A stretch of DNA of 64,000 nt from IMG/VR virus record IMGVR_UViG_3300030098_001091, one strand, 5' to 3'. The notes beneath the pieces are model-generated. The model saw only the letters and a program-made list of their open reading frames with translations. It was not told where the DNA came from and searched no databases. A program made the position numbers and the translations under genes. Source of the stretch: an uncultured virus (IMG/VR IMGVR_UViG_3300030098_001091) (Duplodnaviria > Heunggongvirae > Uroviricota > Caudoviricetes). Shown here one piece after another: positions 16,105 through 43,500 of this stretch (positions are counted from its first letter, which is position 1; every line of letters starts with the position of its first letter).

Positions 16105-18549
16105 CTATGCAAAGAAGTATTCCGAATTGATAACAGTCTCCAAATCAAAACTACCTTGGGACGGTGGTTCTGGTAAGTTAACTCCGAGATGTCTTCCGAC
16201 ATCATACTTAAACTGCTCAAGACAATTGTACCTATGCATCCTAAGGAACTCTTCTCTTATTAAATCTCTCATAACAGGGACAAAGTTAGGATGACAACCA
16301 TAGGAATCATGTATCATACAGAAGTCTTCGATATCATAACCGATCATGCGGTCGATTGTCAAGAACATATGAGCAGCATCTAAAGAATGAATGTAGTTTG
16401 GTGCGATAGCTTGACGAGCTGACCGAGGATCAGGGTCATCTGTTCGCACAAAGAAATTTAATTCTTTATTATTAAATAATTTTGCTATTGACCTACGAGT
16501 TTGTGTCTTGGTATAATAGTGCATCACCTTGAATCCACTAGGAGTTACCCAAGACAAGTGTTTATTATTACTACTAGCAATATCAGACACTTCCTTTAGC
16601 CAAGCCTTACCACTATTTGAATTAACCAATGTCTGGTCAAGGGCAGCTTTGATTGCACGAGCAAGTTCAACGATAGCACCACCCCTGTTTTCTTTTGGAA
16701 CCCAATCGAGGTGGCCTTCAACTCTGATATACTTCTGAATACCGTAGAATGTAAGACCGTATGCCTCACACATGGTGCTTCTCTTTGTTACGTTACGATG
16801 TATGCCCTCGTTCCAGTGTTCGGAGAACGCCTTTAGCCAAGAGTTTTCATCAGCCTTGAACAAGCAGTAGTCAGTTGTTTTATCAGCAACAAACTGATAT
16901 AGATCTTCTGGTTTATTAGAAGGGGCAACACCAGTTAGGTGTGCAATAGTTTGATCACGCATGATAGCTGACCAGTGTTGGTTACCATTACACTTACCAT
17001 CTAGTTGGACAGGGATATCCGAGCATCCATCTTCTTTCATGACATCAAAGATAGAACTGAGTCGTTGGAATGACTTGTTCTTTTTCTTTGCATCATCAAT
17101 CCATTCTGTATTTTTATAAGGATCTTCTGATATTCTTTTGAGCATGTCCCAGTTGTCATCTACCCACTGGACTCTCTCATCAAACGGCACCTTATCCTGA
17201 TCAAAGAGGTTGGCAAGGTGTACCTTCCTCCAGTACTCACCCTCTTCTGTTAGTCTTCGTCTATTAGCCAAGCGAATAAGACCACGATCAAAATCAGAAG
17301 ACTGGGGAGATAGTAATTCGCAGACGGTGTATCCACGACCACGGAAATCAAGAGTCCACACATGATAAAAGTATTCCCAATCCAGTAAGTCTTCAGCCAG
17401 TCGAATCCGAACGAGCATCCGTCCTCGTTTCTGTTCGTCTTTATACCATTCCCCCCAAGACTCCTCCTTGAGCTGCATCCATTTGGCCTGCTCTTCTTTA
17501 GTCCCATCTATAGGGTAAGGAGCACTGTACATAAACTCCTCGAACGAATAGAAGGGAAGGTTGGCCATGCCTGTGTTGTTTTCGAACAGAGTCTTCATCA
17601 CCTCCAACACCTCAGTGTTGACAGACCATTCGGTTTTCATTACAGCATTAAGGCCACGGAGCACAAGCTCAGAGGGCTCAGAAAATCTCTGTTGTTTCTT
17701 TTCATCACCGAAAAAATTATCTTTGTATCTCTGAACCACCGGCTTGCGTAGGTTGGTATGAATGTAACCACCACTCGCTGCTTCGGTGTGGTCTATAGGC
17801 GGTATGAGCATCGGTCTATAGACTAGCGTAGAGTTTTGAAGTATCTCATGTCTGTTGTGTAGTTCTTTTAATACCTCAGGATGAAACTCTACAAAGGAAT
17901 AGGTTCTATAACTCTTGCGAACCTTAACCTTTTCTTTTCTAATAATAATTATATTAGATGACGCTGCAATCTCCAGCATGTGGTGGCCGAAGCTATGCTT
18001 CTGTCTTGCACTAAGTTTTATATTCTTCTGCATTTTTTTAGCAAAGGCATTACATCTTTTAATAGTCCAGTTCTTAATAAACTTAGATTGTTTCTTCCAA
18101 TCCTGATAGTGATCTTCTTTGGCACGCTGGTATGCAATGATATCACAGGCATCGCTGGCTATTTGTGTTGCTATCTTTTGTGCAAGCGGCGGTGTATGTA
18201 TGTGATCGGAGTACAGGTGACCCCAGAATGAGGGAGTAAACCAGTGGCGAACGACAGCTCGTATCGTAATGTCTGCTAACTTGCGAGCACCTAGCTCAAG
18301 CAAGGGATACAGCCAGTCGGGGGAACGAGATGCGCCCTCACATATGGTATCAATCCATTGTTGGTAACTCTCTTCCAGCTCACGAACAGATGAATCGATA
18401 AGACATTGCTCGGGGACACCCTCATCTGGCGCACGATCATAGTCTGACCAGTAGCGGTGTCTACCATACTCAAGCATGTCTTGCTCATACCGTAGCTGCC
18501 CGTTGTGCCGGGCTAACTGAACGTCTTCAGTTTCTGCATCCCATATCAT
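16105..18549 (-). CDS. T7-type single-subunit DNA-directed RNA polymerase (RNAP-1)
   Basis: PMLIPP, LDFRGRGY, motif A LDGKCNGNQH, DLY, motif B RNVTKRSTMCEAYG, WVTPSGF, APNYIHSLDAAH, motif C IHDSYG. Confidence 0.97.
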   Translation of the reverse strand: MIWDAETEDVQLARHNGQLRYEQDMLEYGRHRYWSDYDRAPDEGVPEQCLIDSSVRELEESYQQWIDTICEGASRSPDWLYPLLELGARKLADITIRAVVRHWFTPSFWGHLYSDHIHTPPLAQKIATQIASDACDIIAYQRAKEDHYQDWKKQSKFIKNWTIKRCNAFAKKMQKNIKLSARQKHSFGHHMLEIAASSNIIIIRKEKVKVRKSYRTYSFVEFHPEVLKELHNRHEILQNSTLVYRPMLIPPIDHTEAASGGYIHTNLRKPVVQRYKDNFFGDEKKQQRFSEPSELVLRGLNAVMKTEWSVNTEVLEVMKTLFENNTGMANLPFYSFEEFMYSAPYPIDGTKEEQAKWMQLKEESWGEWYKDEQKRGRMLVRIRLAEDLLDWEYFYHVWTLDFRGRGYTVCELLSPQSSDFDRGLIRLANRRRLTEEGEYWRKVHLANLFDQDKVPFDERVQWVDDNWDMLKRISEDPYKNTEWIDDAKKKNKSFQRLSSIFDVMKEDGCSDIPVQLDGKCNGNQHWSAIMRDQTIAHLTGVAPSNKPEDLYQFVADKTTDYCLFKADENSWLKAFSEHWNEGIHRNVTKRSTMCEAYGLTFYGIQKYIRVEGHLDWVPKENRGGAIVELARAIKAALDQTLVNSNSGKAWLKEVSDIASSNNKHLSWVTPSGFKVMHYYTKTQTRRSIAKLFNNKELNFFVRTDDPDPRSARQAIAPNYIHSLDAAHMFLTIDRMIGYDIEDFCMIHDSYGCHPNFVPVMRDLIREEFLRMHRYNCLEQFKYDVGRHLGVNLPEPPSQGSFDLETVINSEYFFA

Positions 18550-22053: not shown

Positions 22054-22314
22054 TTTCTTTTAAGAACCAGACGGTGTTACTACATACGATACGGTACATG
22101 TGCTCGTTGCCATCCCCAATTCTATATGTGATCCACTCTGGTTCCTCTCCATAATAATCTTCACATTGGATATCATCAAAATCGTCTGTCATTTTTAATC
22201 CTATTAAGTGCTTTTTCAAGCTTCGCAGTTCCACGGTTTTTAGTAATAAAACTAGCGAGTTCTTCAGTAGACCATTTGAGTTTCACAGCTACACGAAATA
22301 CTTCAGCGTGCACA

Positions 22315-23754: not shown

Positions 23755-23765
23755 GGTGTATCTCC

Positions 23766-24400: not shown

Positions 24401-24409
24401 TGGGTTGGG

Positions 24410-24592
24410 TCAGGCTTTGGCGGCCCGACGTTCGAGCTCAGCAAGAGCCAGCTCACGCTTCTCGTCGCTGGTGTTGTCCATCGTGGCGATGTTCACCAAC
24501 TGGTGCGTGTCGGTCTTGCTGTAGTCAACGACCTTGGTCTTGATGCCGAGGCTCTTGCTGACTGCTGCGATACGCTTGTCGAGATCCTTCAT
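24410..24592 (-). CDS. Small hypothetical protein (60 aa)
   Basis: MKDLDKRIAAVSKSLGIK...ELERRAAKA; AAGGA precedes ATG 24592. Confidence 0.5.
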   Translation of the reverse strand: MKDLDKRIAAVSKSLGIKTKVVDYSKTDTHQLVNIATMDNTSDEKRELALAELERRAAKA

Positions 24593-24728
24593 AGTGAGGA
24601 GTCCTTCCCGGTTTGGGGAAAAGAGCAGGGGGTATCCACGGAAACCCACGATAGGCTCCGCTACGGTTACCCACAGCACGGTATAGACTGTCCGGTCAGT
24701 CATATAACGAAGGGGAGCTTTGCTCCCA

Positions 24729-24925
24729 TAGACCAAAGTGTACCTAGGGTATACCTAGGGTAAACCTTTATTATTATTATACTATCATATACCTCTAGTC
24801 TACCTAGGGTATACTATATACTCCACCTATACCGCCCTACTATATATGGTATACCTGTAGACCCGTGGTATACTACATATGGTAGACCCCCATAGACCGT
24901 ATACTATACCTTATACCTCTATACT
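24729..24925. repeat. Array of short TATAC/TAGAC/CCTAGG repeats
   Basis: About 12 TATAC, about 5 TAGAC/GTCTA and 3 CCTAGG copies at roughly 10-20 nt spacing in a non-coding stretch. Confidence 0.7.
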
Positions 24926-25037
24926 CCACTCTTCCGTGGTGTTCGTTAAGATAGATAATATAATATATCTATCAATATGTGGGACTGGAGACCATCACCT
25001 TTCGATGACAGCCTCCCAAGGGGTTAAAGGTTAGAAG

Positions 25038-25574
25038 TCAAGGACGCAGTTTACGAGCAGCCTCCATCGTAGCACGACGCTTATCGACGGCGGAAGCATT
25101 CTTCGCTTCCAGCCACTCGTGGTAGTCCACCTCGCTCTTATGAATCTTTGCACCGGGATAGATCTGCGAAAGCAGCGTCATCCACCACTGCGTTGGAATG
25201 CTGAACTCCTTTGTCCAAGAGCGATCCGTCGCAGGATGCCAGAGCTCCACCTTATAGTGGTTCTCAAATTCCACGAAGCTTTTGTCTAAGGAACGAACGA
25301 CCAGTTGCGTGTGCTCCTGTGTCCGGAAGACTCCGGGCATTGCAGAAAGCATTTGCTCCATGTCGTTATCAGACAGCCATTGAAGTACGCCGTCTGTGTC
25401 CTTGCCTCGTGAGGCGGGCAGGTACCACCACCCAACTGACATATCCTGAGGAAATACCCGTGCACTCACGCCTTCTGACTTTGGGTCATTGTTCGTGATG
25501 AGAACACAGGAACCGTAAGTCCTGTGTATGCACTGATACCGTGATCTCCCGATAGGGAAAATAAACTGTTCCAT
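25038..25574 (-). CDS. Hypothetical protein downstream of RNAP-2
   Basis: AGGAG SD before ATG 25574 (MEQFIFPIG...), 178 aa; the longer ORF-track version crosses a GC hairpin. Confidence 0.6.
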   Translation of the reverse strand: MEQFIFPIGRSRYQCIHRTYGSCVLITNNDPKSEGVSARVFPQDMSVGWWYLPASRGKDTDGVLQWLSDNDMEQMLSAMPGVFRTQEHTQLVVRSLDKSFVEFENHYKVELWHPATDRSWTKEFSIPTQWWMTLLSQIYPGAKIHKSEVDYHEWLEAKNASAVDKRRATMEAARKLRP

Positions 25575-25603
25575 CTTTTGGAACTCCTGTAGTAGTGAGC
25601 ATA

Positions 25604-25634
25604 ACCGGGGGGCAGGAACGCCCCACCCCCCGGT
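25604..25634 (-). terminator. GC-rich hairpin after RNAP-2 (terminator or processing site)
   Basis: ACCGGGGGGTGGGG-CGT-TCCTGCCCCCCGGT on the minus strand; U-tract is weak. Confidence 0.45.
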
Positions 25635-25639
25635 CAGCA

Positions 25640-27490
25640 TCAATTGCAGATCCGAGATTCTGTGGTGAATCCGATCTTCTTGCAAGCGTCAGGGAACAAG
25701 TCAATCAAGGCCTGAGAATCCGCCTTGACATAGGTCAGGGCATCGCCAACGGGACAGCCGCCAGCGTCGTGGATCCCATACATGTTCCCACCATGCACCG
25801 ACATGTCCTTGAAAGTCAGGACAGTACCACATCGGTGCTCGGCATCCTTCATATGGAGCCGACGTGCCAGCAAAGCTGTACCAGCGTCGGACAACTCAGC
25901 TCGATCCACACGGCATGACCCATTGGTCTCTTTACCGGTGACATGGCTGATGTAGGATGTGTGAACCTTCCAGTTGCCCTTCTTAGAGCTACCCGTATCG
26001 TGCTGCTCGACGTTGGAATCGTCGGAAGACTTGAAACGATACGGAGACATGAGGAGGTCACCGCCAATGAAACGCTGATCCCAAGGAGTGTCATCCCACT
26101 CCTTCAGTGCATCCCTGTTAGCCTTACTAAGCGTAGGGAAGCAGTCATTGAACGCCTCAGACAGTTGTTGAGACATCTTCTTCACTTTGGTGTAAACCAA
26201 GAGGTGATGGGGCTCGCCGTGAAGCAAAGCGTTTCGGAGAGCAGCAGGCATCTCGCTAAGATCATCAAGGGATGTGAAGCCCTCTCGGAGTCCGTGCTGA
26301 CCAACAAGTGCGTCAAACACGGGGCCTGCACCTGAGCCATATGTCTTAGGACTGAAGATCTTCTTCAGTATTAGGAGCATTACGCTTGGTGGCAGACTAG
26401 CGAGGAACGGCAGTCCTAGCTCGCGAATAAACGCAAGCAACACTTTACGAGGGTGTTGATACGCCTCGTTCAGCACATCGATGAGTGCCAGTGACAGATT
26501 TGCACCCGTCATCAGCTCGATGAATTTCGGACCCGACCCTTCTGTATCCAGCTCCATCAGGAATCTGGACTGCCGATCTTTCATCGGCAAACGCTCAAGG
26601 CGACTGAACTCTAATGCCGCCGCATACTCATAAGCGCCACAGCCATCCTTTCCAGTTGCTCCCGCCAGCAAAGACGCTTTCGGGTCGGACAGGATGGAAC
26701 CACACCAATCCTTGAGACTGGCTTTACCGGCGAAGTGCCGCTTCAGCCAGCTCTTAAAGAACACCCAGTGCTGGTGGTCAATCGGCACTGGGTACGCCAG
26801 CTCCATCATTGCACGGCACTGTTGGCCGAACATGGGGTGAAGCGTGCCCGCAGACTTAGCGTACATACGCAAAGCCCAACAGAATGTAGACATGGCGACG
26901 TAGAAGGGCTCGTATTCCGTTGCCGTGGCCATTGGCCGTAGGCGATAGGGGTAGAAGCTCTCCTGAGCAGAGAACCGAGTGTTCTCAGTATTGCCCAATG
27001 GAATGTCACCACGCACCTCCCAAAAGAGGTTGTCCATCTCGCGATTCACCACAAAGGGTGTGCCGCTCAACGTCTGGGCGGCTTCGCGGGCAAGCGGTGT
27101 AGGAGACAAGTCAGTCCGTCGGCTGACTCGTGGAGTCCACAGCCCATCCAGTTTGGGTGGGCTAGTGTGGTGGTGCTGGATGATGGGATTAGACTTCTTA
27201 GCCGAGAGCCATACAGCCAGCACTTCTTCCGCTGCTCCCTGCAAGATTTCCAGTCGACGGTCGTATAGGTCCGGACGCTCCTTAAGGGCATCAATAGCTA
27301 CTCCTTGCTGGTAGAACTCTACGAGCTTGGGATTATCGTTCCGAGCATTGCCGGAGCGAAACGCCACATCGATGTCGATGTTTCGTACCTTACCGCTGAC
27401 TGGAGTCAGCAGGTGGTTCTGCGTGTGTCTTTTGACAAGCTCTCGCTCATCAGGGGTCAAACACACACCCGATTTCTTCGATCCGCTCAA
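25640..27490 (-). CDS. Divergent second T7-superfamily RNA polymerase (RNAP-2, about 616 aa)
   Basis: Collinear T7 RNAP motifs: TPFVVNREM, FYVAMSTFCWALRMYA..LHPM, motif A MELDTEGSG, motif B KKIFSPKTYGSG, RLHMKDAEH, motif C GIHDAGG. GGAGG SD lies 8 nt before TTG 27490; the ORF track extends it to 27598. Confidence 0.8.
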   Translation of the reverse strand: MSGSKKSGVCLTPDERELVKRHTQNHLLTPVSGKVRNIDIDVAFRSGNARNDNPKLVEFYQQGVAIDALKERPDLYDRRLEILQGAAEEVLAVWLSAKKSNPIIQHHHTSPPKLDGLWTPRVSRRTDLSPTPLAREAAQTLSGTPFVVNREMDNLFWEVRGDIPLGNTENTRFSAQESFYPYRLRPMATATEYEPFYVAMSTFCWALRMYAKSAGTLHPMFGQQCRAMMELAYPVPIDHQHWVFFKSWLKRHFAGKASLKDWCGSILSDPKASLLAGATGKDGCGAYEYAAALEFSRLERLPMKDRQSRFLMELDTEGSGPKFIELMTGANLSLALIDVLNEAYQHPRKVLLAFIRELGLPFLASLPPSVMLLILKKIFSPKTYGSGAGPVFDALVGQHGLREGFTSLDDLSEMPAALRNALLHGEPHHLLVYTKVKKMSQQLSEAFNDCFPTLSKANRDALKEWDDTPWDQRFIGGDLLMSPYRFKSSDDSNVEQHDTGSSKKGNWKVHTSYISHVTGKETNGSCRVDRAELSDAGTALLARRLHMKDAEHRCGTVLTFKDMSVHGGNMYGIHDAGGCPVGDALTYVKADSQALIDLFPDACKKIGFTTESRICN

Positions 27491-27684
27491 TTGAGTATCC
27501 TCCAATAGTGGATCAAATACACGCTGGGCCGCCGACCTAGCCGACGTGATACCCAGCGATATTGCTTGCATACCGCACTTAAGTGTACGCAAACACACCG
27601 ATGGTTACAACCTTAATGGTTATTCTTCCTCGTCTTCAGTCCTTCCGTAGACTGATCTAGTCTTCACACTGAGGCTTTAGCCTC

Positions 27685-27714
27685 AAAGCCCACCCAAGAC
27701 CGTTAAGTCTTGGG
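27685..27714 (-). repeat. Hairpin repeat copy 1 (terminator-like or hairpin promoter)
   Basis: AAAGCCCACCCAAGACCGTTAAGTCTTGGG; 29/30 identical to 27929-27958. Confidence 0.75.
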
Positions 27715-27723
27715 CAGGTGAGA

Positions 27724-27930
27724 TCATCGGCGGTTATTCCAGCCAACGGTGCCTAGGGCTACGCCTAGAAGACCACCGATGATCAGCAGAAATGCGGGAA
27801 GATAATCTTCCGGACTACGGTTTGCAAGGAATAGTATCCCTGCCGTCAGGCTAGCAAAACCCCAAAGGATCATGATAGCACAAGTGCATGCTAGAATTAC
27901 GGCCTCTAGCTGGCTCTTGGAAAAGAACAA
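27724..27930 (-). CDS. Small two-helix membrane protein
   Basis: Two hydrophobic segments; start uncertain because there is no clear SD. Confidence 0.4.
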   Translation of the reverse strand: MFFSKSQLEAVILACTCAIMILWGFASLTAGILFLANRSPEDYLPAFLLIIGGLLGVALGTVGWNNRR

Positions 27931-27958
27931 AGCCCACCCAAGACCGTTAAGCCTTGGG
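27929..27958 (-). repeat. Hairpin repeat copy 2 (terminator-like or hairpin promoter)
   Basis: AAAGCCCACCCAAGACCGTTAAGCCTTGGG; followed on the minus strand by TTTGTTCTTTT. Confidence 0.75.
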
Positions 27959-27982
27959 TGGGTGGAACCCTTCCCGGTTCGT

Positions 27983-28162
27983 TTACTCTAGATCGCTGGG
28001 ACGAATGACAATCTTATCATCGCCCTGTCCGTGGATGACAATAGGCTCATCCTTTTCGTCGAGATCTTGGTACTTGTAGTCAGTACCAAGTGCCCTTGCA
28101 ATCAGAATCAAACCAATGAATGGTATGATAATGGTTGCACCGATAATGAAATAGCTAAGCAT
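27983..28162 (-). CDS. Small membrane-anchored protein (59 aa)
   Basis: Hand-translated MLSYFIIGATIIIPFIGLILIARALGTDYKYQDLDEKDEPIVIHGQGDDKIVIRPSDLE; AAAGGAA SD. Confidence 0.55.
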   Translation of the reverse strand: MLSYFIIGATIIIPFIGLILIARALGTDYKYQDLDEKDEPIVIHGQGDDKIVIRPSDLE

Positions 28163-28247
28163 TGCTATTCCTTTCTGCCCACTAAGGGGCTACGGGGGGG
28201 AACAAACACTTTGTTCCCTTACCAAGCCCCAGACAAATTCGCGACCC

Positions 28248-28583
28248 CTAAGTCGATTTTCGTTTCCTCCTCGGTCTGCTTACGATAGCGGCGATGGCTA
28301 ATAACCCCAAGGCACCCGGTGCTGGCAAGATAACAGGATCTCGTTTGCCGAACTGGGAGCCGAATCCTTGCACGGATTCCAACGCTTCACTGATGGAATC
28401 CAACGCCTCTTTCCCAAAGATGGCGAGGATGGCTACCCCCACCAATGTACCGATGAATACCTTCTTGTTCAGCTTCTTCAGTTTCTGCTCTTTGGCTCGA
28501 TTACTCTTTTGACATTTGCTCAGGTCTTCACGGAGTTTCTTGATTTCACTATCCCTACATATCGGACATTCATTAGGTTCCAT
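28248..28583 (-). CDS. Membrane protein with C-terminal PEP-CTERM-like (PAP variant) sorting signal
   Basis: Coiled coil, one transmembrane helix, then LPAPGALGLLAIAAIVSRPRRKRK at the C-terminus; AGGAGG SD. Confidence 0.7.
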   Translation of the reverse strand: MEPNECPICRDSEIKKLREDLSKCQKSNRAKEQKLKKLNKKVFIGTLVGVAILAIFGKEALDSISEALESVQGFGSQFGKRDPVILPAPGALGLLAIAAIVSRPRRKRKST

Positions 28584-28593
28584 TTGTCTCCTC

Positions 28594-31500
28594 CTATGCT
28601 AATTGATCGCTGTCTGGTATCTCCAAAGCTGGGGCCTGCTGGCCTATTTGCCCCACAACGTCCGGAGAAGCCGTCTCAGCCGTTTCGGGCTCTGGGGTAG
28701 GCTGGGGTGCTTCCTGTTCCTGAACGGGCTGTACGGGGCTCTCCGGGCCTCTGACGGGCTGCGGAGGTTCTGCCTGAGGTCTTCCCATATCGAAGCCTCT
28801 TTGGGCCTGCTCTGCCATCAGGTGCTGTTGCCAGTTAGGATGCCTGAGTCCCATCTCTTCGATTATCATTCTCATAGCCTCATCCGTAGTATGATCTAAA
28901 CTATGGGTTGGGTGTCTAAACATTCCTCCCGCAAGGTTAGGACTACCGGTTCGTCTGGAGGAACGAGAGGCTGGGGAATCGGTAAGAACGTGCAGGGGAA
29001 GGCGGACCATGGCATCTCCAATAAAGGGCATGTTTCGCATAGCATTGATCCAATCCGTATTCTCTAATTCTCCACCAATCATTTTTGTAACAAAAGCCCT
29101 CAGGTTATTAAGCATTGACATACCACCAGCCGCTGAAATGAAGGCTCCCGGAGTTCGGGAAGCTGGGTTTTCCACAGTCAACCCGGTAAGGAATTCACCA
29201 ATCATATTCAAGTATCGACCCATGATAGGAAGTCTAAAGCCGTAAGTCATAAAGAATGCTGTTGGACTATCTTCCAGATCTTCCATAATGTCTTCCCATT
29301 CGTCTCCACTAGCCATTCTTAAGAGCATCATATATGTCAGATCCAAAGCACACATGGTAATCAGTCTTACACCCATAGCAGTCAAGCCAAGGTGATTGGC
29401 GTTTCTCATAATGAGCTGACTATTGAATAACATACCATATCGTCTATAGATTTCAAACAGCCTTTCAGATCTAGCATCATCTGTATTAATGTCAAAGGCA
29501 TTGGGGTTCACAAGGATCTCATTTACAAAAGCCTTTTCCATAATCTTAAGACCACCAATAACATCTAAGCTTTTGTGGTATTCTTCTCGATTGGCTAAAG
29601 TATCTGTTTTGCTGAGATAGTTTCTAATCTGATTTGGACTGTAAGTTCCTTTTTCCTTCTTATTATTAAAATCATTAAGTAGGGATGTCAAGCGTGGATA
29701 AGCTGATGCGTCTAAGAAGCCAGCTCTTAACATGTAGGTAATAACTCTACCGTACTTTCGGGGATTAATGCCAGCATCTTTCATATGCTTTTCTAAAGCC
29801 ATGGGATCTGGCAGCACTAAATCAGACTGCTTAAATTTCCCCTCCATAAGCTGACCCTGTTCGTCTAAAGCAAAGTTGACGTAACCATCTCGTTCTTTTT
29901 TGATGGTGAGTTTAGATTGCTTGGGGTCATTCAGGATCGCTACTAACTTAGTAAGTTTCCCAGACTGCATTAATTCAAATACAGACTTGCGGAAAATCTG
30001 AGCACGGCTTGTAGCCATAGCTCCCATAATCCATTGCGAGGGCCTCATCATTTGGTTTCCCCATCCGTCAATAAAGTTAGCGGTTTTACCCAATGCTTTA
30101 TTACCAGAGCTTGCTTGTAATAGCGGTCTGTCATAGTCAGGGACATGAGCCTGAGTCATAACTCCAATTAAATCTAACAGATCTCTAGAGGTTTCTTTAA
30201 ACTCTTCAGTACCTAATGCTGCTGGACCTAAAGCGGTTAATGCTTTAAAGAATCCTCTCCATCCTTGAGGACCAAGTGCAGATGTTAAAGTATTCATTGC
30301 ATACTCTACGGTTATAGTAGCTAACGACAGATTACCACCGAATGCAATCTTAGTAATACCCGGAGCAATCTCAACAAAGAAGTCTTTCCAAGGATCATGC
30401 GGCTGTTGTGTTTGCCGGATGCCTCGAATATACTTATACTTATCCCGGAGAGTGGTGATTGAATCGTTAATGTTTTCTGCGGCAATGCGATCTATTTGAG
30501 TGCCATCCATGTTTCGCCAAGACGCGTCGGTATTGGCTTCTGCAAACAGATTTAACGCATCTCCAATAGTACCGTAGATTTCAAAGTTATCGATCATTAA
30601 CATAAGCTCAGTAACTTCGTCTGCGATTCCTTTCATATAATCGTTAATCAGAGATGTTGGATGTGTTACTATATTATCTAAAATAGTGGAATCAAGTGTA
30701 GCAGCAACCGCAACAGATGGAACAAACCAAGCATCGTTGGGTAAATACATTTGCATTCCTGCTCGGTTAATGAGATTGTACACATGAACATCAATCGGAT
30801 TTTTTCTTCTGAATTTAAAAGGAGCAACCTTGTCTTCGGGGGCCATCCAGCCAATTGCTTGTGCATGTCTATCAGACTTACCGGGTTTGTACAGTTTCAT
30901 TAATCTCTGCTCGAAATCTCCAGATCGATTGCTACCTGTTATGACATCGTTTTGACCACGACGCATAGCTGAAACATCTACTCCTTCTTGACTCAAATGA
31001 GCCCAAGCAATGTTTCCTCTAGTCAGCTGTCTCATAAAGGAATGGAGTCCTTCTTGAGTTTCTCTAATAGCTTTCAGTTCACCGTCTCTCAATCGACGCA
31101 TAAGATTTGTTTGGAAATCAGCAACAGTTTTTTGAGCTTCGGTTTCATTAAGAACCTTATTCCCTTTTGGCTTAAGGCCTTGCCATCCAAGTTCAATGTT
31201 CTGCTCATCCGAATGGTAAGCGATGTACTCAATCAAAACCTTTCTAAAGTTTGGATCTAAAGCTTCCATTTCTTTTACCATACTAGCTGAATCACCAAAG
31301 TCTGGAAGATAACCTAAAGCAAATAAACTTACTGGATCAATATAATCACTGTCCCTAAGCTTTGCAATGAACATCTCGCTTAGGCTATCTCTAAGTGATT
31401 CAAGACCTTCAGCAGAATGTTCGTTAAATTTCCAACCAACTTTGTTTGTTGCGGCATTACCCCAATCTCCAATAGATTTCTTTCTATCAATAAGAACATT

Positions 31501-34500
31501 CATAAAGTCATTTAAATCATCAGCAATAGATTGCATATGACCTAAGACTTTATTTTGTTTTTCCGCAGAAAGATTATCAAACAGAACACGGGCCGGTCCC
31601 TTGATAGCATCCTTAAGATTTACGTTATCAGAATCAACAGCTAACAAAATTGCAAGGTGTATTCCCTTTAACTGCTCTCCTCTTGATTCGGATATCTTAC
31701 CCGCAACTAAAGCTCTTACTCCACCAAAGATTTTTTCAATCTCATCATAAGTAGAGTGTATACTATTTTGGTGGGTTCGAAGCTTTTCCATGTTTCTACT
31801 TAGTGAGGCTGTTCCTTGAAGATTGGTCCAGCTACCCATTGTCGAAACAATCTGATCATCTAATAGCGCGGTAAACCAGACCGGAATAATATGCATAGCA
31901 TTATAAGTAGCACCAGCACCAGAAGGTCCAACTTGGCCAGTAACAATAAATCGCTTAAGGGTATTATGATCTCCGGTTCCTAAGACCTTATCCAAGATCT
32001 TATCAAACCATTTTGTAAAGGCATTTGCTTTGGCTCCAGCTTTTCGAGAAACCTGATTACCAAAACCTCGACTAGTACCTGTAGAGTCTTTAAACTTTTC
32101 AATAAGTACTTGCATTGCCGCAAGACGTTCATCTGTACTTAATTCCAGATCACCTTCTCTAACTCCTTGCCTCATAGCTTTAATGTCTAAAACTATTTTT
32201 TCCTTTTGATCCGGTCCTATTTTCTCAATAGAGCGCCCGTACTTTTTGTATAAGCGTTGCTTTGCTGAAAAGAATTGATACCTAGTTAAGCCAGTTTCTA
32301 GTATAGTATCATGTTCAGCCGTTAATCCTTGACGAACCATAGTAGAATCAACATCAGGTCTAATAATATTGTGAAGGACATTGTGTCTTTCTACTTGTTC
32401 AGGAGAAAGATTATCAAGTCCCTGTTCAGATAAACTATCGTATTCTTTAACCATTGCTTCAAATACTGCATCGTCATATCTAAATGATTCGTCTACACCC
32501 TTAGTTGAGTGAGTTTCTGTATACTCAGGACCAAACTCAAAGGATTGCCTCAGTCTTTGCTCTGGTGCTGGGGCCAGTAAATGTGTTTGAGAATCAAGAT
32601 CAAATCCAAACAAGCGATTCATCAAGCGGTTTACATCAGGATTTTGTAACTCTTCAGACCAAATAAAACCAATCTTCTCAAAGATTCTTCGCATATAACC
32701 AAAGACTTTACTTAACCAAGGCATAGCATCCTTCAAGACGCTATGTTCTTCTACGGTAAAGTCTTCTTTCAATAAAGTATTAAAATCACCGAGAAGATAG
32801 AAAGACCCAAGAGATGCAATAAACTCATCTACGTTTTCCATCGCATACTTTACTTCAGCTTTAGTATCTGCTGTTTCAATTCCACCATGCCAAGCTGTAT
32901 ATAACTTAGTCATTAAGCTATGGCCCTTCTGATTCATTAAAGCTTCAAATCGGTGGTAGGCAGCTGGGTCATTCATAATAAATTCCATTGCGCCTTGGTG
33001 TGCTAATTCGTGAGCAAGGATCAATACTGGGCTAAGTCTGTCATTGGCTCGACGTGCCTGTCCACCAATTGAAATAGTTCTACGACCAGTTCGTGTATCG
33101 GTATCGATTCTACCGCCACGAAGTTCTTTCATGAATTCTAATTTAAGATCCTGCAAGCCCATTGGGTTGAATAGGTACATATTAACAATAAGCTTTCGCA
33201 TCATGCGAGCCTGTCTCTCATCTATATTACCTTCGTCTACCATGTCTTGGATATTTTGATTAAGTTCTCTGATCGGTCTGAACCCTGTCTCATTAGCCAT
33301 CTCTTCCATTCGTTCGTACTTACGATGGAAGTTTCTCTTTCGGATCTTGGCTCTGCTTCTTATTGAGAAAGCTCTTTGTTCAACTTCAAGAGGATTAATA
33401 TCTCCCAATGTATCCAGCTCCATTTTACCTGAGGGTATATTTAACTGATCATTCACGGCAGATTCTATTGCTTGCTTCGCTAGATACTCTAAGGCAGCTT
33501 CTCCAGTTTTTCCATAGAGATTTTCAATCCGAGTCAAATGGTGGCTAGGAATAGATTCTAAATTCCACAGGTTTTTAGACCTAAGCCATGATATAAAGGC
33601 GCGCTCGGTTGAGGTGGCGTGTCTAATATGTCCAGCCTCTACACTATCTCCCAGATGGTTTAACGCAGCTGTATTTCCTCTATAGGAGACTGATGTACTT
33701 TCCCCTTGTTTAGTAATAATGTCTACAGTTTCCAACTGGTTTATAGTAATCGGATCTTTCAATTCCGCAACCGAAGCTGTGGCATCTCCCTCTTGATTAC
33801 CGTATTCAACCGCTACGGGTATCACTGCCAATTTATCAGCACGGACACCAAACTCATTCCATAATATCATATTATAAAGCGATAGCTGCTTAGACCACTC
33901 TGATTTCTTTTCTTCTCGGATCACGGTTTCTCCGGTATCCGTTTGTTTCTTAGTCTTTACATCGTAGATAGTAATTTCACCGGTTGTTCTATTTCTAGTT
34001 AAGACATCAAACTCACCCCGAAGACCAATCTTTGTATCCATTATCATTACTTTATCGACCATAATCTCATCCGTTTCCAAGATCTTCTTCTTGAGGTCAA
34101 GCATCTGGTCTATAAACTTATTAAACTTTTCTTCAGTATCGATATAAGGTTTGTCTCGTTCTGTTCTATAGGATTCCCAATTAGGTCGTTCTTCAGATCT
34201 GAAGACATCTCTAACCAAGTTGTCAATATTCTCTCCGACAGTAAATGCATTTTGAAGGACAGGATCGTTATTCATTTCTTGAATTGTTTTATCTAATTCA
34301 TTAATCTTAAACTCTAAAGACTTAACAGAAGAATCTGTTTCCGGGATTCCTGATTGGATAAGTTCATCTCTATCTTTTCTAAGTTTAGTTAAAAGATATC
34401 TAGAGTTGGTACGAATAGACTGGGTAACGCTTGTGGCAGGTCCAGAATATGCTTTAAATTCCTCTTGCCTATTTTTAATCCGATCAAAGATAGTTTCTCT

Positions 34501-37500
34501 ACTACTAGCTTCGGGACCAATATCAGACATACTTTCGGGAGAAGTAACCGAATCTTCGTCTATAAGTTGCATCCACTCGAAGGCAAAAGATCTAGCGTGC
34601 CAATAGAATTGGTTATCTCTAATAAACCCATTCTCACTCATATGTCCACTTATTTCATTATGAAGATGCATCATCTCCATACTAATCCTACTAAGCTCTT
34701 CAGCCGAAACTGTTTTCTTTTCCTTACCGATCTCAATAACCCGACCTTCAATCTGAACAGCATAAGTATCCGGATCTAAAAACTGTTGCCAATTGTGATC
34801 CCCGTACCAAGACATTGGGTTTCCTGCATTTTGGAATATAAGTCTAGATCCTAAAGCTATTGCTTTTGCCATAGCAAAACTACTGTCCTTATCTGTTTTT
34901 CTGGCCGCATCAATAATGCCTTGTACCTTATTAATTAAATCATTCTGATAATCATTAATATGTTCGGTTCGCAATCTATTCATTAACTCAACAAGTGGAG
35001 ACAGATGTGCTTCTTTCCATGTACTCCCAAAACCTAAGTTGTTGGTTTCCGATACGCCTCTAGAGTATGAGTCTAAATCTAAAATCTCCATAGGCTTTCC
35101 AGAGATTTCTTTTTTATCTCGAACAAGATATCGGGAATGTTTGCCTGCGTCCATCCTATCTTCAACGGCTGTCATTACTTTTAATAAAGCCTCGCTATCA
35201 ACAACAGCCTTTTCAATCTGAGGCTGCATACTAAATCCTAATGCTTTTTGCATTCTACGGGCATGGGGTTCAGCGTAAACCATTTTCTGATTCTCTGCAT
35301 CCCACTTAGTTCTAATTGCTTTGTTTGTACGACCAGCATTTTCCATATCAACATGTACTTGACTATTACTAATTGTAGCAAACATCAGTAAGACAGATTG
35401 TTTTGTTAACGCAATCTTGAGATTACCCTCAATCTCAGATGGGGTACGAACCAGTATTCCACCCAATGCTCTAGCAAAAGCATTACGAGCAACCATAGAT
35501 TTTATTTGGTCACTTCGAACCGTAGTTCCAGATACATCGGTTTCAATAATAGCCTTTAGTTTGACAAGCATAGTTCCATCTTTATCCTTAGACATAATCT
35601 CTTCTTGCCTTAAATCAAACTCCCACTGTCTCGTTGTAGTCATTTCTTCGAGGAACATCTCAACCATTCGGGTCATATCCTCAGGAAGGATAGCATCCCA
35701 TGTGTTGGGGTTATTAGCCATTAGTTTATATGCACTTCGTACATCTGCTGGACCGTCCCAGTTTTTGAGATACTTAGAAACCACAGCCTCATAGTTTTTT
35801 CCGATAATAAAACGCATAAAGTCTGTGGCATGGTAGACACCAGATTCTAGTACCAATTCCTGAAATTTAATCTTACCTTCTACTTTACCATTGACAGTAA
35901 TAGCTAAGTTTTCTTGCGGTGCTGCTCCCATCTCCTCGTATACTTTAAGCTCCTTGTGAATATCTGTGGGCATAAGAAGATACCCTTCTTTAGTTTCGGG
36001 ATTATAAATCTTAGTTAAAGATTCCAATACCGATTCAGCCTCTTGAAGCTTACCAGCAATTGCCAGTTGATTGATGTCCTTGAATAGATCTAAACGTCCC
36101 CGTACCTTCTTACGAACATTTCGGGAAATCCTAGAAAGTAAATCTAATTCGGACAACCATTTATTTCTTGCCATGATATAATAATTTCTGGCTCTTCCGG
36201 GATTCTTTTGGAGAATATCCCTCTCAACATTACGAGGTCGCCAACCTTCTCTAGCAAAGATAATAGCTTCTCTTTGGAGCCTAGCTGTTTCAGCTACTAG
36301 GAAGAAGTATGGAACAAGAGCTGAGTTTTGATTAAGAAGATCTTCATGTCCGTGTTGTCTTGCGTATGTATAAGCAATATTATGAATCTCTGCTGCTCTC
36401 CAAGCTACTCTTGTGTTTGGATCGTTCTTATAAATATCCCAAAAATCTAATGCAATAGTTTCCGCGTTTGGTAGGGTATCTCTTTTCCATGGAGCGTGGT
36501 ATCCAAAAGCTTCGTGCTTGCTTTCCTTCCCGCCCAAGATAGGATCGTCTTCTGTCATGTTCTCTCGTTTAAAGTTATCAAGATATCCAATTCTCTTTTC
36601 GATTTTATCTTGTACCATTTTTCGATGTATTCGGTTAATGCCTCTATTAAAGAATGCGGCCTTCTTGTGCAAAGGCTTATTAAACATGAATCCCTGCTGT
36701 TCCGCAGTCCTTAATGGAATAAAGCTTCGGTCATCATCGAAGTGACGTGAGTCATGCATTTCGTGTATGTTTACTCTGTTCCATCCACCAGCGTGTTCTC
36801 TAGCCATTTCTTTAGTAAGCCAACCAAAATTCTTTCCATAGAATTCTCTTAGAGTAGGATTCTGAGCAATCATCTGTTCATACTCAGATCGAGAATCAAA
36901 TGTCTCGTGGTTACTCTTACTTGATTCATACATGTCTTCCATTACATTTAAAAGCATCGCTGGTCTATTATCTTCTTGGGTATAGTTAGGGAAGACTTCC
37001 TTAGGCAAAGTCTCAAACTGTGAGTACCAAAGGAACTCGTTTAGGTCCATTAAATCTGACAGGTGCTGTCGAACATCCTTTGGATCCATTGTTTGATACG
37101 GGTTATCATAACCATCAAGCATACCAAGACTACTGACATTATCGCCCGCACTTAAATATTCTTCTAAAGCTACTAGGAACTTAGCTGGGTCGCCGGTTGG
37201 GTCTTTGCCCTTCATAAACTCCATAAAATCTTTATACTGTTTTCCATCCTTCATAGGATCTGGAAGTACTGCAACTCTACTAAAGGAAGTTGCTGTGTGA
37301 TTTGGAATATGACCACCTACTGCCAGACCTCTATGGTGATCTGCTGTTGGACCAATGCGACCATAAAGGAACACATTTCCAAGACCGCTTAACTCGTCTT
37401 CAGTCCACTCAACATTAAAAGCTTTGGCAACATCTTTGGCCCGATCCATATTAATACGGAAGTGGGAAGCCGTCATCATATTCAAGCCTCGGAAGAAAGC

Positions 37501-40500
37501 AAGTTCCTTGTGGTTGAGGTCGTTTTCGGGGAGAAAGATCTGATGGATCTCATTCCATCGGGCATCATTCATATCCATGTTACCATCTTCTTCCCACTCA
37601 CGGAATTTGGCTTCGGCTTTTGCAAGCATCGGTGCATAGTTTTCTTCGACCGTTTCAATCTTTTGGTTGCTATCTCTAGCAATAATCCTAAGGCGATCTT
37701 TGATAGTTCTTCTAAGATCACTAAGATTATACAATGATTCAGATACAGATCGGTCATCCTCGGGTAGTGCTTCGTCTGTTCTTAATTCAGCTGCCTCGGG
37801 CTGTGTAAACGGAATAGTATGGGTTTCGCCTGTATCTCTATCTATAACTACCACATCAGGAAGTGTTCTTTCTACACCCGGCTTATCTTGACGAATTTCT
37901 CTAGAAACTTGCCTAGCCCGTTCTGCCTTATTAATAAAATCAAGAACTCCTCTTGTCTGGAACTCTTCACTTCGATTGATTGATAAGAATCCGGTCATTG
38001 CATCTTTCATTCCTTGATCGGTAGCGATGACTTGATCTAAGATTACACGGTCATTGAAATCCTGACGCTCGTATAAAAGTTCCCCGAGTGCGATTATATT
38101 ATCCGAAGTTACTGTAACTCCCATTTGCTCCGCTAAAGCCTTGACAGCAAGAGTACCCTTACCAAAAGGTTCGTTAATAAACTCTTGTCTAAAGTTGTCA
38201 AGACCACCACCATACATACGACGCATAACTGGGGGCTTAAATACATCTCGTAATTTACTAAGTACTGCCTTTTCTTCCGCACTTATATCTTCTCTCTTCT
38301 TCATAGCCTCAAAGTCTTTAGTACTTTTAATATCATACTTCCCAAGAAGATCGAAAGCTGCTTTAAGTGGACCCATTCTTTGAACTACTAAAGCATTTCC
38401 ATTAGCAGAAATTGCGTCTGCCGCAGCTAAAGCACCTTTAATATAGAAGTCAGATTCTGAAATTGAAGATCTCTTAGAATTAAGAATGGTTGTTCTTAGC
38501 CCATACTTTACTAAAGACTTATAGATGGTATTTGCTTCTTTATCTATATTGCCATTGTCATCCATCACCTCGATTGGCTGATTACCATAAGGGGTATTTG
38601 CAATATGCTTCCAATTATCTGAACCCGTAGTAGTCATAACCGCTAAAGTATTCAAGTGGTTTTCATGAATACCGCTATTAACTCTGTCATAGTAATTTGT
38701 CCTGTCATATAAGAACTCATTAACTTCATCCAAAGTAATAGTTCTATCACCAATTACAACTTCTCCGTTGACAGTTACATCAAGGAATTGCTGTGGATTC
38801 ATGTTAAACTCGTCCATAAGCCATTTGTTAGTGGACTCTATACTTGCTTCAATAATAGACGATGCCAAAGGAGCCATCTGTTCTGAAGCAAAAGCTTGGG
38901 CAATAACATCACCCGCGTAACCACGAGGAACAATAACCTCACTACCGGGACTAATAAATGGAATGTTTAGCTGATTTGCAAAGTCTCTATTAAAACGAAT
39001 CCGACTATCTCTGGCTCCAGCTAAACTATCTTGGACAAACATCTGAGCAAGGTTTGGCAAGTCCATCATAAAATGCATTGCGAGATCAATAGCTTTTTCC
39101 CTGTTCAACAAGCCTTGCTCTAAGCTACCGCCTACCCATCGGGGAAAGATCATAAACTTAGTCATATCTTCAGATGGATCTGGGGTTCCTTCTTTGCGGA
39201 ACTTTTCCCGCCACTTAGCAGCAGCGTCCCGTTGTTTTTTGCCCCAGTTTTTAACCGTAGGTCTGTTTAAATCATCATCCCATTCAATATGTCTTAAAAC
39301 TTCTTTTTGTCTCTGATCAGTTTGCCACCTCATAATAATACGCTTTAAATCAAACGATCCTAAGGGGGCTGAGTGATTAATTCTTCCAGCAGCAGCAACG
39401 AATTCAGGATTGCCCTTTCTATCCATATCAGACTCTGTACCAATTAATCCGTGCTCTCCAGTAACAAGCTTGTCAGCTTGCACTGTGATTTTCTCAAAGG
39501 CAAAGTAATCTACAATAGCTCTACCAACTAAAGTGGCAGGAGCCCAATCAATAGTACCGTCACCGAACGAAGATAAAGTTACAACCCCAGAATCGCTATC
39601 ATCAGCAAAGACATCTAAGCTTTGCATAATTTTATTAAACGTCCTATCAATATTAATAGGCTCTCCGGGTACATACTCCACACCTAGTTTTTCCATGATC
39701 TTTCTAGCACGGGGATGAGCTCTACCACCCTCCATAAATAACTGCTCTTCTAATCTTTCTCTAATAGACTGCTCAACAGTTTGTGTATATGCTTCTCTAC
39801 TTCTGGTAACTTGGGATCTATCGAAGAAACCAGTTTCCTCTCGAACATCTAAGACAAACCCAATCGTCCTTGCTTGGGATTTATTCCAATCCCTAGAGGC
39901 ATCTTCTAAATCCTTTAATAATTCCACCGCCAATTCGAAATTTGAAATCGAGTCGGGCTTAGTTTCACTATCTAACTCTGACCTCATAATCTCCCCAATA
40001 AGATTATCTAAAGTCTGAGCTCTAGTTCCTTCTAACTTTCTATACACCCTACCTCGATAAAGATCAACGATATCCATTACCTTTTCCAGATTATAACGCA
40101 ATGATCCAGCGTTAATATGTCTTTCACCAATTTCCATCTCAAGACCAGCACCATCAAGAGCTGGCTCAAACAGCACAAAGGGGGCCAATCCAAGCTGCCA
40201 GAAATATTCAGGCATTGTTGAATATACTAATGCAGCGTGTACACTACCGTCGCTGTTTCTTGCAGTCGACTGAAGAAGAGCCTTAAGTCTGGAATTCCAT
40301 TCAGCCCAAGCTTCGGCTTCTTTGTTTATGTCTCTTCTGATTTTTTTAAGAGCTTCTCCCGGATTACTCTCATTCAATAGGTTATCCCAGTTTGTGTAGG
40401 GAAGGTTATCTAAATCAGCATCAGTAAGCTCAAGGAGCTGGGATTTGAGATGTTCTTGTAGATTTGCAGGAGCAACAAAAGACGTAAGAGATCCTAGTTG

Positions 40501-43500
40501 CATATCCTTAAGAAGTTTATTAATTAATGATTTTGTTTCCCCAACAATACTTCTAGCTTTATCTATAGGAATTGTTCTATTCAACCTTTTTGTTTTTTCT
40601 GTGTGGTCTAAAGTATTATGATCAGCAACTTTCTTCTTCTTCCATTTAGAAATATCAGGAAGCAGTTGCATTAATTCCTTAACAGTAATATTACCCTCTG
40701 CTTCTAAAGCATCCAATCTTTGCTCTGCACCCGCTATAACAATTTCAAAGTGCTTAGTGTCCCGTTGAATTTGATCAATAAGACCACGATGTGAAACGAC
40801 AGAGCTAAATGATACAACAGCCGACTGCTTAGCTCGTTCTTCTGAAAGTTTAGACAACTCCCTCTTATAATCTCTATGGACTTTTTCAAACTTCTTAACA
40901 GAGGCTGTATGATTTTTGTAGTCATCCGTTTCCTTAAAGTCCTGTTCTACTTTAGTGGCAAGAGAATTGAAACTATTAATTAATTTTGTAAATGAAGACC
41001 CCCTCTTTGACGATCCACCTGTCAATTTAGTCTCCGGATCTCCTTTTAATATTCTATTAATTTCATTCTTAATTGTCTGTCTAATCTTCAGGTGGGTTGT
41101 TCCAGACTCTACTAATTCGAGTAGGCTTTCTAGAGCGGAGATAACCCCCGGCATGTTATCTAAATCTTCAATTTTAATTGTTTTCTTAATCTTATCTGGC
41201 ATCGGCTTTCCGGTTTCTGGATCTATTTCCATAAACGGAACAAGACGCAATGCACTTATCGGCCTTACCAGTGCCAGATATTGGTCTACCTCAGCACCCC
41301 CTGCTTCTTGAAAAGCTTTATAGGTTTCCAGAAGTCGCTTTCTTAATTCTATAACCTCATCACCTAAAGCTCTAACGACAGGATCAGGATTAAGCTGGGC
41401 TAGGAAAGCCTGCTTATCTATATTTAATTTCTCAAGCAGATCTTTAATTCTTCTTTTTGCTTCTTTGAAATCCGCAATCTTTTCGCGATGTAGCTTGAGC
41501 TTATCTTTTAACTCTCTTCTGCGTTTTAAGAGATCTTCTGAAACGGCATCCCTACCTTTGGTTTCTCTAGTCCTTCTAATTTGACCAAGAACCTCAGCCC
41601 TTTCGGTTTCTGTTTCAGCCATCTCCTCTGTTTCACGTCTCGAATCTTCATCGATTTGATTTGATACTTCTTGAGCTGTCTGTTCAGCATCAACGCTCTG
41701 TGTTACAACATCGTTTGTTGGAGAACCTTCCTGTACCGCTTCTCCTGTAGTGGGAATTCCCGCAGCGGTAGCTTCTGCACGAACCTGATTAATAGTCTTA
41801 ATAGCCTCGGCATCAACTTCGGTCTGTTTAGTCATTAACTCATGAGCATAATCTAAACCAGCATCAAACCGTTCTTTTTCAGTCGCACTATCCCAATCAA
41901 CTTTAGACCCATCCTTACGAGTAATCTGAGAATACTTCTTCTTTGTTCCACTTAATATATCAGGAGGTAAAAGTCTAGTCCACTGCTGTTTATCTTTAAT
42001 GTTCTGCACATATTGGGCAGAAGTAATGTGTGTGCCTGTTCTTGCGGATTCAGCAGCAGCTGCATTTTCCATATCTGAGATATGTTTGTTCCATCCCCGC
42101 ATTTGGGTAATAACCCTATCGACATCAGGACCATGCTTTGCGGTTATTTTGTCGTGAAAGGTTCCTTGCAAGGTTGATAAAGTATGCTCTAAAAACTGAG
42201 CTGGAGATAACGAAAACTCTCCGTGAATTTGTAAAACCTCGTTTGCTGTTTCTATTAATAAATCATGAAAGTCCGAATCATTTAACCCAGATAAATGTCT
42301 AATAGAAGACAGCCCAAGACTAAGCCTGTCAGATGCTCCTTCCCCAGCACCTCGGTTTATATCCGTTATAGCAGCTTGACCCAAGTCTAAGTTAAGTCTA
42401 CTAGCTCCGGACACACCATCTACTGGAGAAGCATTTAAGGTTCGATTAATAATCCTATTTAATTCCCCACGCTTACGAGTAATTTCTCTAGTCCGTTTAA
42501 CATAGTCGGGGTGACTTACGGTTTGCCAAAAGTCTACTGTTTGGTTTATCCAGCCACCAGTTCCTTTTGCCTTAGCGTTATACCACTTCTTCGCTGTCCA
42601 AGCTATAGGCAGAGTACCTGCACCCATAGCGGTACCAAAAACAGGGTTAATAACAGGAGATAACAGAGCTTCAAGTATTCCCTCTTCCTTAACCTTGCCC
42701 CAGTCAAAACCATCCTGCAATCCCATATTCTGTTTTCGCCATTGGTTACCGATTTCTGCCAAAGACCCAGTAATAGCACCCTCAGCCATATCCGAAACAC
42801 GATTCAGTGGCCACCTAATTATCCGACCTGCTTCTCTAAAATCCTTACCTGTTGCTTTTTTAATTCCCTTGGCTAGTAAGTGAGGCCCCACTCTTTCTGG
42901 AAGATAGTTTACCAATCTCCTAGTCATATCACCAACAGCCGCTAGCCTTTCACTAATTCCAGCTTTACCTGTAATACTTCTAGCATTCTCCATTCTGTGC
43001 AATACCTGCATGAATCTTTTCATCCGCAAAGCTTGCTTAGCAGTCTTAGCAGCTAAAACGGTAGATGTAAGAGCAGCTCCAGCAATGACCCCAACACCTG
43101 TTACAGATAGACCGGCACTAATAGCCATACTTGCAACTAAATCAGGATCGTTAATAATACCATTTATAGTTAGGTTTGATGCAAAATTCCACAACTGATC
43201 CATATCAGTAGCAGTTGATACCCAGTTTCCATAAGCCTGAGCAATCTCCATCTGTCTGGATGTGTTGGAAATAGTTCTAAAGAAATCATAAGGATTCTTT
43301 GTATCCTTAACTATTTCTTTTAATGCCTCTTCCCCACCTAACTGCATCGCAAAGAAATTGTAATTATCAAAATCTTTTTTCCTAAATTCTACTAATGCTT
43401 GGCTAGGTTTAAACGCATCTCCAAAATCGAGATTTAATAAGTCCTCAACTCCGCTAGAAAAAGAATTAGCAACAGGTAAAGTTTGCTTATCAAAACCTGA

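Follow-up and report, generated by a model that had tools for sequence, protein, structure and literature searches.

Here we analyse a second, short RNA polymerase (RNAP) gene in a stretch of 64,000 nucleotides from an uncultured virus (IMG/VR record IMGVR_UViG_3300030098_001091), which we refer to as the window, meaning this whole stretch. The virus is a T7-like podophage, all window genes lie on the minus strand and the phage sequence occurs in marine metagenomes. Besides a canonical T7-type RNAP, the window encodes a 616-amino-acid protein that is a second, very divergent homologue of the T7 RNAP family. A first-pass annotation, made from the sequence alone, had described the gene as a short and divergent second RNAP, and this description was borne out. 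The features on which the identification draws are:

25640..27490, minus strand: short second RNA polymerase gene, 616 amino acids, TTG start (open reading frame, motifs, homology, model, dN/dS)
27498..27503, minus strand: Shine-Dalgarno sequence GGAGGA, 7 nt 5' of the TTG start (read from the sequence)
26546..26548, minus strand: codon for D315, the catalytic Asp of motif A (ELDTEGSG), equivalent to T7 D537 (hhalign; 24/24 sequences)
25766..25768, minus strand: codon for D575, the catalytic Asp of motif C (IHDA), equivalent to T7 D812 (hhalign; 23/24 sequences)
16105..18549, minus strand: canonical T7-type RNA polymerase, 814 amino acids (phrog_414, E 4e-169)

The minus-strand frame is uninterrupted from 25640 to 27598, and automatic gene callers choose the GTG at 27598, giving a protein of 652 amino acids. 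The length of 616 amino acids from the TTG at 27490, as first proposed, is nevertheless the right one, as judged from the GGAGGA 7 nt upstream and from the homologues, since all four full-length close homologues with shorter calls begin at the position aligned with this TTG. The 36 codons 5' of the TTG (27491-27598; 10001-10108 in the contig L001 of a 70%-identical relative) are open in-frame in both phages and their first eight residues are alike in the two (MCLxxLKC); this open stretch may have arisen by chance, encode a leader peptide or point to an alternative start. Residue numbers of the short RNAP are those of the 616-amino-acid form throughout.

Searched alone, the window protein gave no Pfam match (0 families at E <= 1, including PF00940 and PF14700/RPOL_N), no PHROG family and no PDB sequence match at E <= 10, and none of three family members found a tblastn match among 50,697 phage records. 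There are four close homologues, and searching 1.84 billion representatives with a profile gave 25 matches at E <= 0.001; family members are mostly ~550-660 amino acids long and a few shorter rows look truncated. When compared with 177,635 PDB sequences, the family profile matched human mitochondrial RNAP (POLRMT) at E 4e-11, N4 RNAP2 at E 1.7e-5 and T7 RNAP at E 3.3e-5. Its match to yeast Rpo41 (E 4e-7) places profile positions 163-569 on chain residues 713-1128, the whole polymerase domain, and in a collection of 5.8 billion proteins it reached fungal mitochondrial RNAPs with a best E value of 2e-12. Because of the values for the human and fungal mitochondrial enzymes, the homology exceeds chance. 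The same profile also recovers the canonical RNAP of the phage itself, to which BLASTP aligns a short C-terminal segment (554-615 in the 652-amino-acid numbering, against 693-752) containing HxxDAxH...IHD at E 0.009.

Structure prediction of the protein alone, one of the checks suggested at the outset, gave a confident polymerase fold. The AlphaFold 2 (AF2) model has a pLDDT of 90.3 and a pTM of 0.89, its top Foldseek matches are T7 RNAP elongation complexes (E 1e-11), and its predicted thumb, palm and fingers fit solved single-subunit RNAPs better than Pol A DNA polymerases. The best match of the model in BFVD is the 648-amino-acid RNAP of phiEcoM-GJ1 (E 1.1e-13). The first-pass annotation had held that the assignment would fall if the protein had neither a PF00940 profile match nor a structural match, or if the Asp residues varied among homologues: the outcome is mixed, as a PF00940 match is indeed missing but the fold matches strongly and the homologues keep the Asp residues.

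Residues were paired with those of T7 by hhalign, using a 24-sequence alignment of the short family and an alignment of T7-type RNAPs (T7, the window's RNAP and three others). The two align with a probability of 98.35% (E 1.1e-14, 411 columns), residues 132-607 corresponding to T7 314-841. Motifs A, B, HMKD and C, all of which had been picked out from the sequence alone, are present and conserved, with the Asp of motif A in 24/24 sequences and that of motif C in 23/24, the sole row without D575 being P0020, which is truncated at 503 amino acids. In motif B (LKKIFSPKTYGS), K376 and Y384 keep the spacing of 8 and pair with T7 K631 and Y639, whereas H546 and D549 of HMKD pair with H784 and D787, and H574 and D575 of IHDA with H811 and D812. 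G320 is paired with T7 G542, the steric-gate position of DNA polymerases, which is Glu in Pol A DNA polymerases and Gly in RNAP. Across the 24 rows R208, R226, D315 and H574 are invariant, and S319, G320, K376, Y384, G476, D549 and D575 occur in at least 90%. The hhalign pairing also confirmed that DxxGR is degenerate and that the R627 equivalent is Leu, as had been noticed before: R208 corresponds to T7 R425, C204 stands at T7 D421 and L372 at T7 R627. The family consensus (D...R.YA) restores DxxGR; the degenerate form in the window's subgroup is CWALR.

The early suggestion that most of the T7 N-terminal domain is missing agrees with the alignment, which starts at T7 314 (residue 132), and with the missing PF14700/RPOL_N match; ~130 residues replace ~313 of the T7 domain. 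Within this part lies a family-conserved loop, SPPxLxGxxxPxxSRRxDL, at residues 104-127, which might take the place of the intercalating hairpin in the T7 domain. The thumb is shortened as well, to ~40 residues as compared with ~85 in T7. In the model, residues 506-529 make up a long beta hairpin that aligns with the specificity loop of T7, a feature absent from the first-pass annotation, and since this T7-like hairpin is kept, the protein may still read promoters in a sequence-specific way.

The surroundings of the gene bear on how it may be expressed. From position 64000 downward, the window encodes the capsid, tail tube A and B, fibre and spike and the large terminase (TerL), followed by four unknowns (247, 341, 229 and 1385 amino acids), a giant gene of 5112 amino acids and three small open reading frames (ORFs), which we read as membrane proteins by their hydrophobic stretches. 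Next come the short RNAP, ORF178, an AT-rich repeat stretch, ~5 kb of small ORFs and the canonical RNAP, and last the tRNAs, a primase-helicase (10841-12559), DNA polymerase, exonuclease, ribonucleotide reductase and portal. The features around the short RNAP gene are:

28594..43932, minus strand: giant protein gene, 5112 amino acids, upstream of the short RNAP
27933..27962, minus strand: terminator-like hairpin 1, GC-rich stem of 12-13 bp, TTAACG loop, T-rich tail
27689..27718, minus strand: terminator-like hairpin 2, loop and 3' arm identical to hairpin 1, directly past the stop of a 68-amino-acid ORF
27576..27630, minus strand: conserved non-coding block of 55 nt, 85-140 nt 5' of the start, kept with L001 where the flanks are unalignable
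25038..25574, minus strand: ORF178, directly 3' of the short RNAP in the same cassette, homologues only in the closest relatives
24740..24990, no strand: AT-rich region with dense palindromic repeats GGTATACC and TACCCTAGGTA, ending the cassette before the early genes

Hairpins 1 and 2 separate the last small late ORFs from the short RNAP gene. Other hairpins with a TTAACG loop, on 10-13-bp stems that differ in sequence through compensating changes, are found past the capsid gene (62111-62140), the place that the T-phi terminator occupies in T7. Such hairpins also stand just before the short RNAP in the related genomes G002, G003, G010 and G007, in G010 after the cassette as well; positions of this hairpin family outside the window are 60232 in G002, 9350 in L001, 4126 and 6740 in L105 and 4475 in L108. 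They are probably the terminators of the phage, and the constant loop suggests that something recognises them. Read as terminators, hairpins 1 and 2 make the short RNAP and ORF178 a separate cassette, placed after the end of the late operon.

The conserved block at 27576-27630 is present in a single copy in the window and contains TTGTAA-17 nt-TACACT; it is a candidate for the promoter of the cassette or for an element of its leader. Upstream of the short RNAP gene in 12 more distant loci, the block was not detected. The leader of the cassette folds strongly (z -4.7), and cassette and flanks form a GC-rich island (24300-28800; GC content 0.52-0.57 versus ~0.42 for the window). In every one of the 14 loci, out of 15, that show both genes, the short RNAP is richer in GC than the giant gene beside it. 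Since the island is kept at the corresponding place of 14 related loci, across lineages with only ~20% identity in the short RNAP, it is maintained and no recent import.

On its other side the cassette adjoins a palindromic cluster (24320-24990) that is unique in the window, with six TACCCTAGGTA-like sequences at <=2 mismatches in addition to GGTATACC. Exact copies of TACCCTAGGTA number three and are confined to the cluster, which also includes two sigma-70-like sites. This region is possibly a genome terminus, an origin or an early-promoter array. The G002 and G004 contigs stop ~600 bp past their short RNAP gene, at the corresponding place, and one DNA contig (run X9) spans exactly 24860-28270 at a depth of 8.3, as compared with ~3-6 in flanking contigs; either a collapsed terminal repeat or a stretch that several strains share might account for this excess. 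In the metatranscriptome run X20, from the same sample as X9, all three contigs matching 15000-31000 lie inside the short RNAP gene. We regard this as a weak hint of expression, and the lack of coverage in the rest of 15000-31000, like the empty runs X21 and X22, is no sign of silence.

For the adjacent ORF178, which had been put forward as a possible accessory factor, no Pfam match was found with either the 178-amino-acid form or the 215-amino-acid frame from an upstream TTG; the latter has weak PHROG matches (E 0.08-0.09). Its AF2 model has a pLDDT of 58.7 and no Foldseek match at E <= 0.001, and hhalign detected no similarity to gp2 of N4 (E 0.95). An ORF of ~170-245 amino acids follows the short RNAP in 8 of the 15 loci; no homology among these ORFs was detected except for the pair from the window and G003 (57% identity). 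The other roles raised at the outset, with single-stranded DNA or hairpin templates, as a primase or as a DNA-internalisation motor, are speculative.

Relatives were collected as 20 long contigs found through TerL (identity 56-95%). By these relatives, the phage, an uncultured T7-like podophage from the sea, would belong to AG-10.1, a group with large genomes described in a survey of marine Autographiviridae (PMC12361551; Commun Biol 2025), whose list of AG-10.1 members in Supplementary Data 1 includes G007 and G014 (TerL 69-79% identical to that of the window) and G018 (~60-65%). The short RNAP is present in 13 of the 20 contigs, 12 of them directly and G014 (654 amino acids) by local profile search, always after the giant gene, and the order giant gene, small ORFs, short RNAP is kept in 15/15 loci. 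In G015 (L102 13346-15475) and G016 (14350-15303) there is instead a second RNAP of ~709 amino acids, with a strong PF00940 match (E 8e-48 in G016). This second RNAP, possibly an intermediate form, keeps part of the T7-type N-terminal region and, in G015, occupies the slot behind the giant gene. For G018 and G019 there is no more than a weak PF00940 match, inside a 4728-amino-acid ORF; G017 and G021 have the canonical RNAP only, and the incomplete contig G020 none. In an 82-kb relative, G005, the canonical RNAP reads as two ORFs of 620 and 259 amino acids (39576-40737), for which splitting of the gene, a frameshift or an insertion might account.

With regard to a possible origin by duplication, a quick tree of 34 rows, with three truncated rows excluded, places the short family beside the 709-amino-acid RNAP (support 98) and both together beside the group's canonical RNAPs (support 95). 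In an approximately unbiased test the canonical RNAPs as one clade were not rejected (p 0.576). A search for fused forms among proteins of 1153-3290 amino acids gave 37 matches, all to fungal mitochondrial RNAPs, larger giant phage proteins falling outside this range, and the P0011 query found no match among viral contigs.

The short RNAP diverges far faster than the core enzymes. Between the window and G002, core genes are 58-80% identical (TerL 80, primase-helicase 78, canonical RNAP 64), as compared with 23.5% for the short RNAP, 27% for the giant protein, 26% for p341 and 37% for p247 (post-terminase proteins overall 26-37%); early ORFs are as divergent (o153, 26%) or undetectable. Within this one phage group, members of the short family diverge to ~18-25% identity with fixed catalytic residues, and dN/dS between the window and L001 is 0.13. 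The sequence comparisons thus point to purifying selection in the short term and fast divergence in the long term around a frozen active site.

We favour, with moderate confidence, the reading that the short RNAP is an active second transcriptase, a minimal single-subunit DNA-dependent enzyme of the T7 family, which, without a duplex-promoter domain, would need a partner or a pre-opened template and whose specificity loop would still read sequence. The retention of the catalytic residues while the rest diverges argues for a working active site, and the need for help would follow from the loss of the part of T7 RNAP in which duplex promoters are bound and melted. With signals of its own, outside the late operon, driving its expression, the enzyme would transcribe a particular subset of phage genes; like the truncated RNAPII of phage N4, it would probably be unable to open duplex promoters alone, and would require either a partner protein or a template that is single-stranded or supercoiled, while recognising sequence through the loop. 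Insulation from the late operon and, weakly, the X20 contigs fit independent, possibly early expression.

Several observations weigh against this reading. PF00940 fails to reach the short RNAP itself, and the 3 relatives out of 22 that it does reach stay under the threshold (best 20.5 bits versus a cut-off of 22). The family keeps no basic residue at the position of T7 R627, a Leu here, the DxxGR Asp is replaced by Cys in the window's subgroup, and the very fast divergence could reflect a relaxed or shifted function. The X20 contigs are no proof of transcription, given possible DNA carry-over and a run that was found using the window. Finally, no repeated promoter-like motif was detected in the window for either polymerase by searches for direct repeats, the GGTGGAGTATA motif, intergenic 11-mers and the CAAGGAWG motif, and because of this no target genes can be named.

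A different role, which we consider unlikely, is that of a virion-delivered polymerase: synthesised late and packaged alongside the giant ejection protein, it would enter the cell with the injected DNA and transcribe the first genes, as a split counterpart of the giant virion RNAP of N4. The gene follows the giant gene in every one of the 15 loci and diverges like the presumed internal or ejection proteins, but this rate is uninformative, as the early host-takeover genes evolve equally fast, and two terminator-like hairpins stand between the gene and the late operon. The giant proteins themselves give mixed signals. G018 and G019 have no separate short RNAP, and the giant protein of G018 (L099, from 7605 onward), as well as that of G019, matches PF00940 with 17.9 bits (cut-off 22) at ~residues 1930-2040. 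A motif A-like string (MDADSSGS) and a motif B-like K-8-YG lie 97 residues apart in the G018 protein, as in T7, but no motif C was found downstream of the motif B-like string. Four large proteins of AG-10.1 carry PF00940 according to the survey (PMC12361551). In the window's own 5112-amino-acid ORF, by contrast, the short-family and T7-type profiles find nothing (best E > 1).

That protein has a PD-(D/E)XK nuclease domain (~residues 3270-3380, Pfam E 4e-5) as its sole family match, and its 27% identity to the G002 protein extends over the last third. A HELAH string in its translation suggests a zinc-protease-like motif.

Less probable still is an enzyme of the genome end, making primers or transcripts at the adjoining terminal or origin region and so serving to start replication, to process concatemers or to bring in the DNA. 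The cassette adjoins the unique palindromic cluster, the loss of the promoter domain would suit a structure-specific or single-stranded DNA (ssDNA) template, and AG-10.1 phages are described as having no single-stranded DNA-binding protein (SSB) gene (PMC12361551). G002 and G004 end shortly past the gene and further contigs break in or near it; however, these breaks may reflect strain variability, and three lie inside the gene, which is impossible for a genome end. The phage also encodes its own primase-helicase, and a specificity-loop-like hairpin is retained.

A catalytically dead or re-purposed fold, acting as a DNA- or RNA-binding regulator or as a decoy against host defence, would accommodate the extreme divergence, the loss of the R627 equivalent and, in the window's subgroup, of the DxxGR Asp, and the missing PF00940 match, but is very improbable given a dN/dS of 0.13 and both metal-binding Asp, the O-helix Lys and Tyr, the steric-gate Gly and the DxxGR Arg in 90-100% of 24 sequences that are otherwise only ~17-25% identical.

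The puzzle posed by this locus is that a T7-like phage with a complete RNAP keeps a second, stripped-down one, a gene that the 2025 survey, in the portions drawn on here, only noted. Our analysis adds that the 616-amino-acid chain combines a full active site with a specificity loop and evolves 3-4x faster than the core enzymes, that it lies in a terminator-insulated cassette next to a giant protein and a palindrome-rich region, and that in sister phages the slot holds a 709-amino-acid, more T7-like polymerase. If active as in the reading that we favour, the short RNAP would be a compact natural scaffold to study how much T7 RNAP promoter use requires, and a test case for cofactor-dependent initiation beyond N4 and mitochondria. 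A more speculative and rather doubtful idea is that the giant ejected protein and the short polymerase are the halves of an N4-like injected transcription machine, fused in some lineages (G018 and G019) and split in others, the window among them. If true, a polymerase devoid of its N-terminal domain would arrive with the virion or be the first product of the genome end, transcription and DNA entry would begin without the host polymerase, and these phages would bridge the T7 and N4 strategies.

Three tRNA genes (Met-CAT, Leu-TAA, Arg-TCT) lie at 13794-14126, between the small ORFs past the canonical RNAP and the primase-helicase; an Rfam scan of the window found these three and nothing else. 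The phage is distant from those in GenBank, the best tblastn identities being 28% for the RNAP and 40% for the primase-helicase, the latter with records covering most of the query.

The gene class as such has been known since 2025. According to the survey (PMC12361551), AG-10.1 genomes have a gene for a large protein of 3274-5566 amino acids, and 23 members carry an additional RNAP of ~650 amino acids between this large gene and the typical RNAP (~800 amino acids), with limited identity to other RNAPs, for which horizontal transfer was proposed. The gene studied here resembles it in size (652 amino acids from the GTG), in slot and in its small unknown neighbour genes, and almost certainly belongs to the same family. 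The portions of the survey used for this comparison report presence, position and a tree, and give no structure, motif analysis, domain mapping or function. As an enzyme the class is uncharacterised: no paper on its biochemistry or structure turned up in literature searches that were not aimed at that question.

Among characterised enzymes, N4 RNAPII (gp15 and gp16; PDB 6dt7) offers a parallel: it totals 673 amino acids, has a truncated N-terminal domain and thumb, and is described as inactive alone on duplex DNA and recruited by the ssDNA-binding cofactor gp2 (PMC4496689). Both are the second polymerase of their phage, of a similar size class and with similar truncations, and residues 160-267 of gp15 and 8-99 of gp16 align to consecutive stretches of the short family. 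Yet N4 RNAPII is a heterodimer split in the palm, whereas the short RNAP is one chain, in which the gp15/gp16 junction would fall at ~residues 236-243, and in sequence it is no nearer to N4 RNAPII than to the mitochondrial or T7 RNAPs. The window phage is also T7-like and not N4-like, ORF178 has no recognisable similarity to gp2, and, in contrast to the N4 virion RNAP, no polymerase domain was found in the window's giant protein.

In comparison with T7 RNAP and the phage's own 814-amino-acid RNAP, with which it shares 12-14% identity, the short RNAP has ~180 fewer N-terminal residues and a shorter thumb and is without an R627 equivalent or a PF00940 match. The RNAP of the Escherichia phage phiEcoM-GJ1 differs in having no sequence-level match to the short family and is, to our knowledge, the sole phage-encoded RNAP of its phage and not a second one. 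In length and predicted fold, however, it is similar (TM 0.54/0.52, 14% identity), and at 648 amino acids it provides a precedent for single-chain T7-family RNAPs of ~600-670 amino acids.

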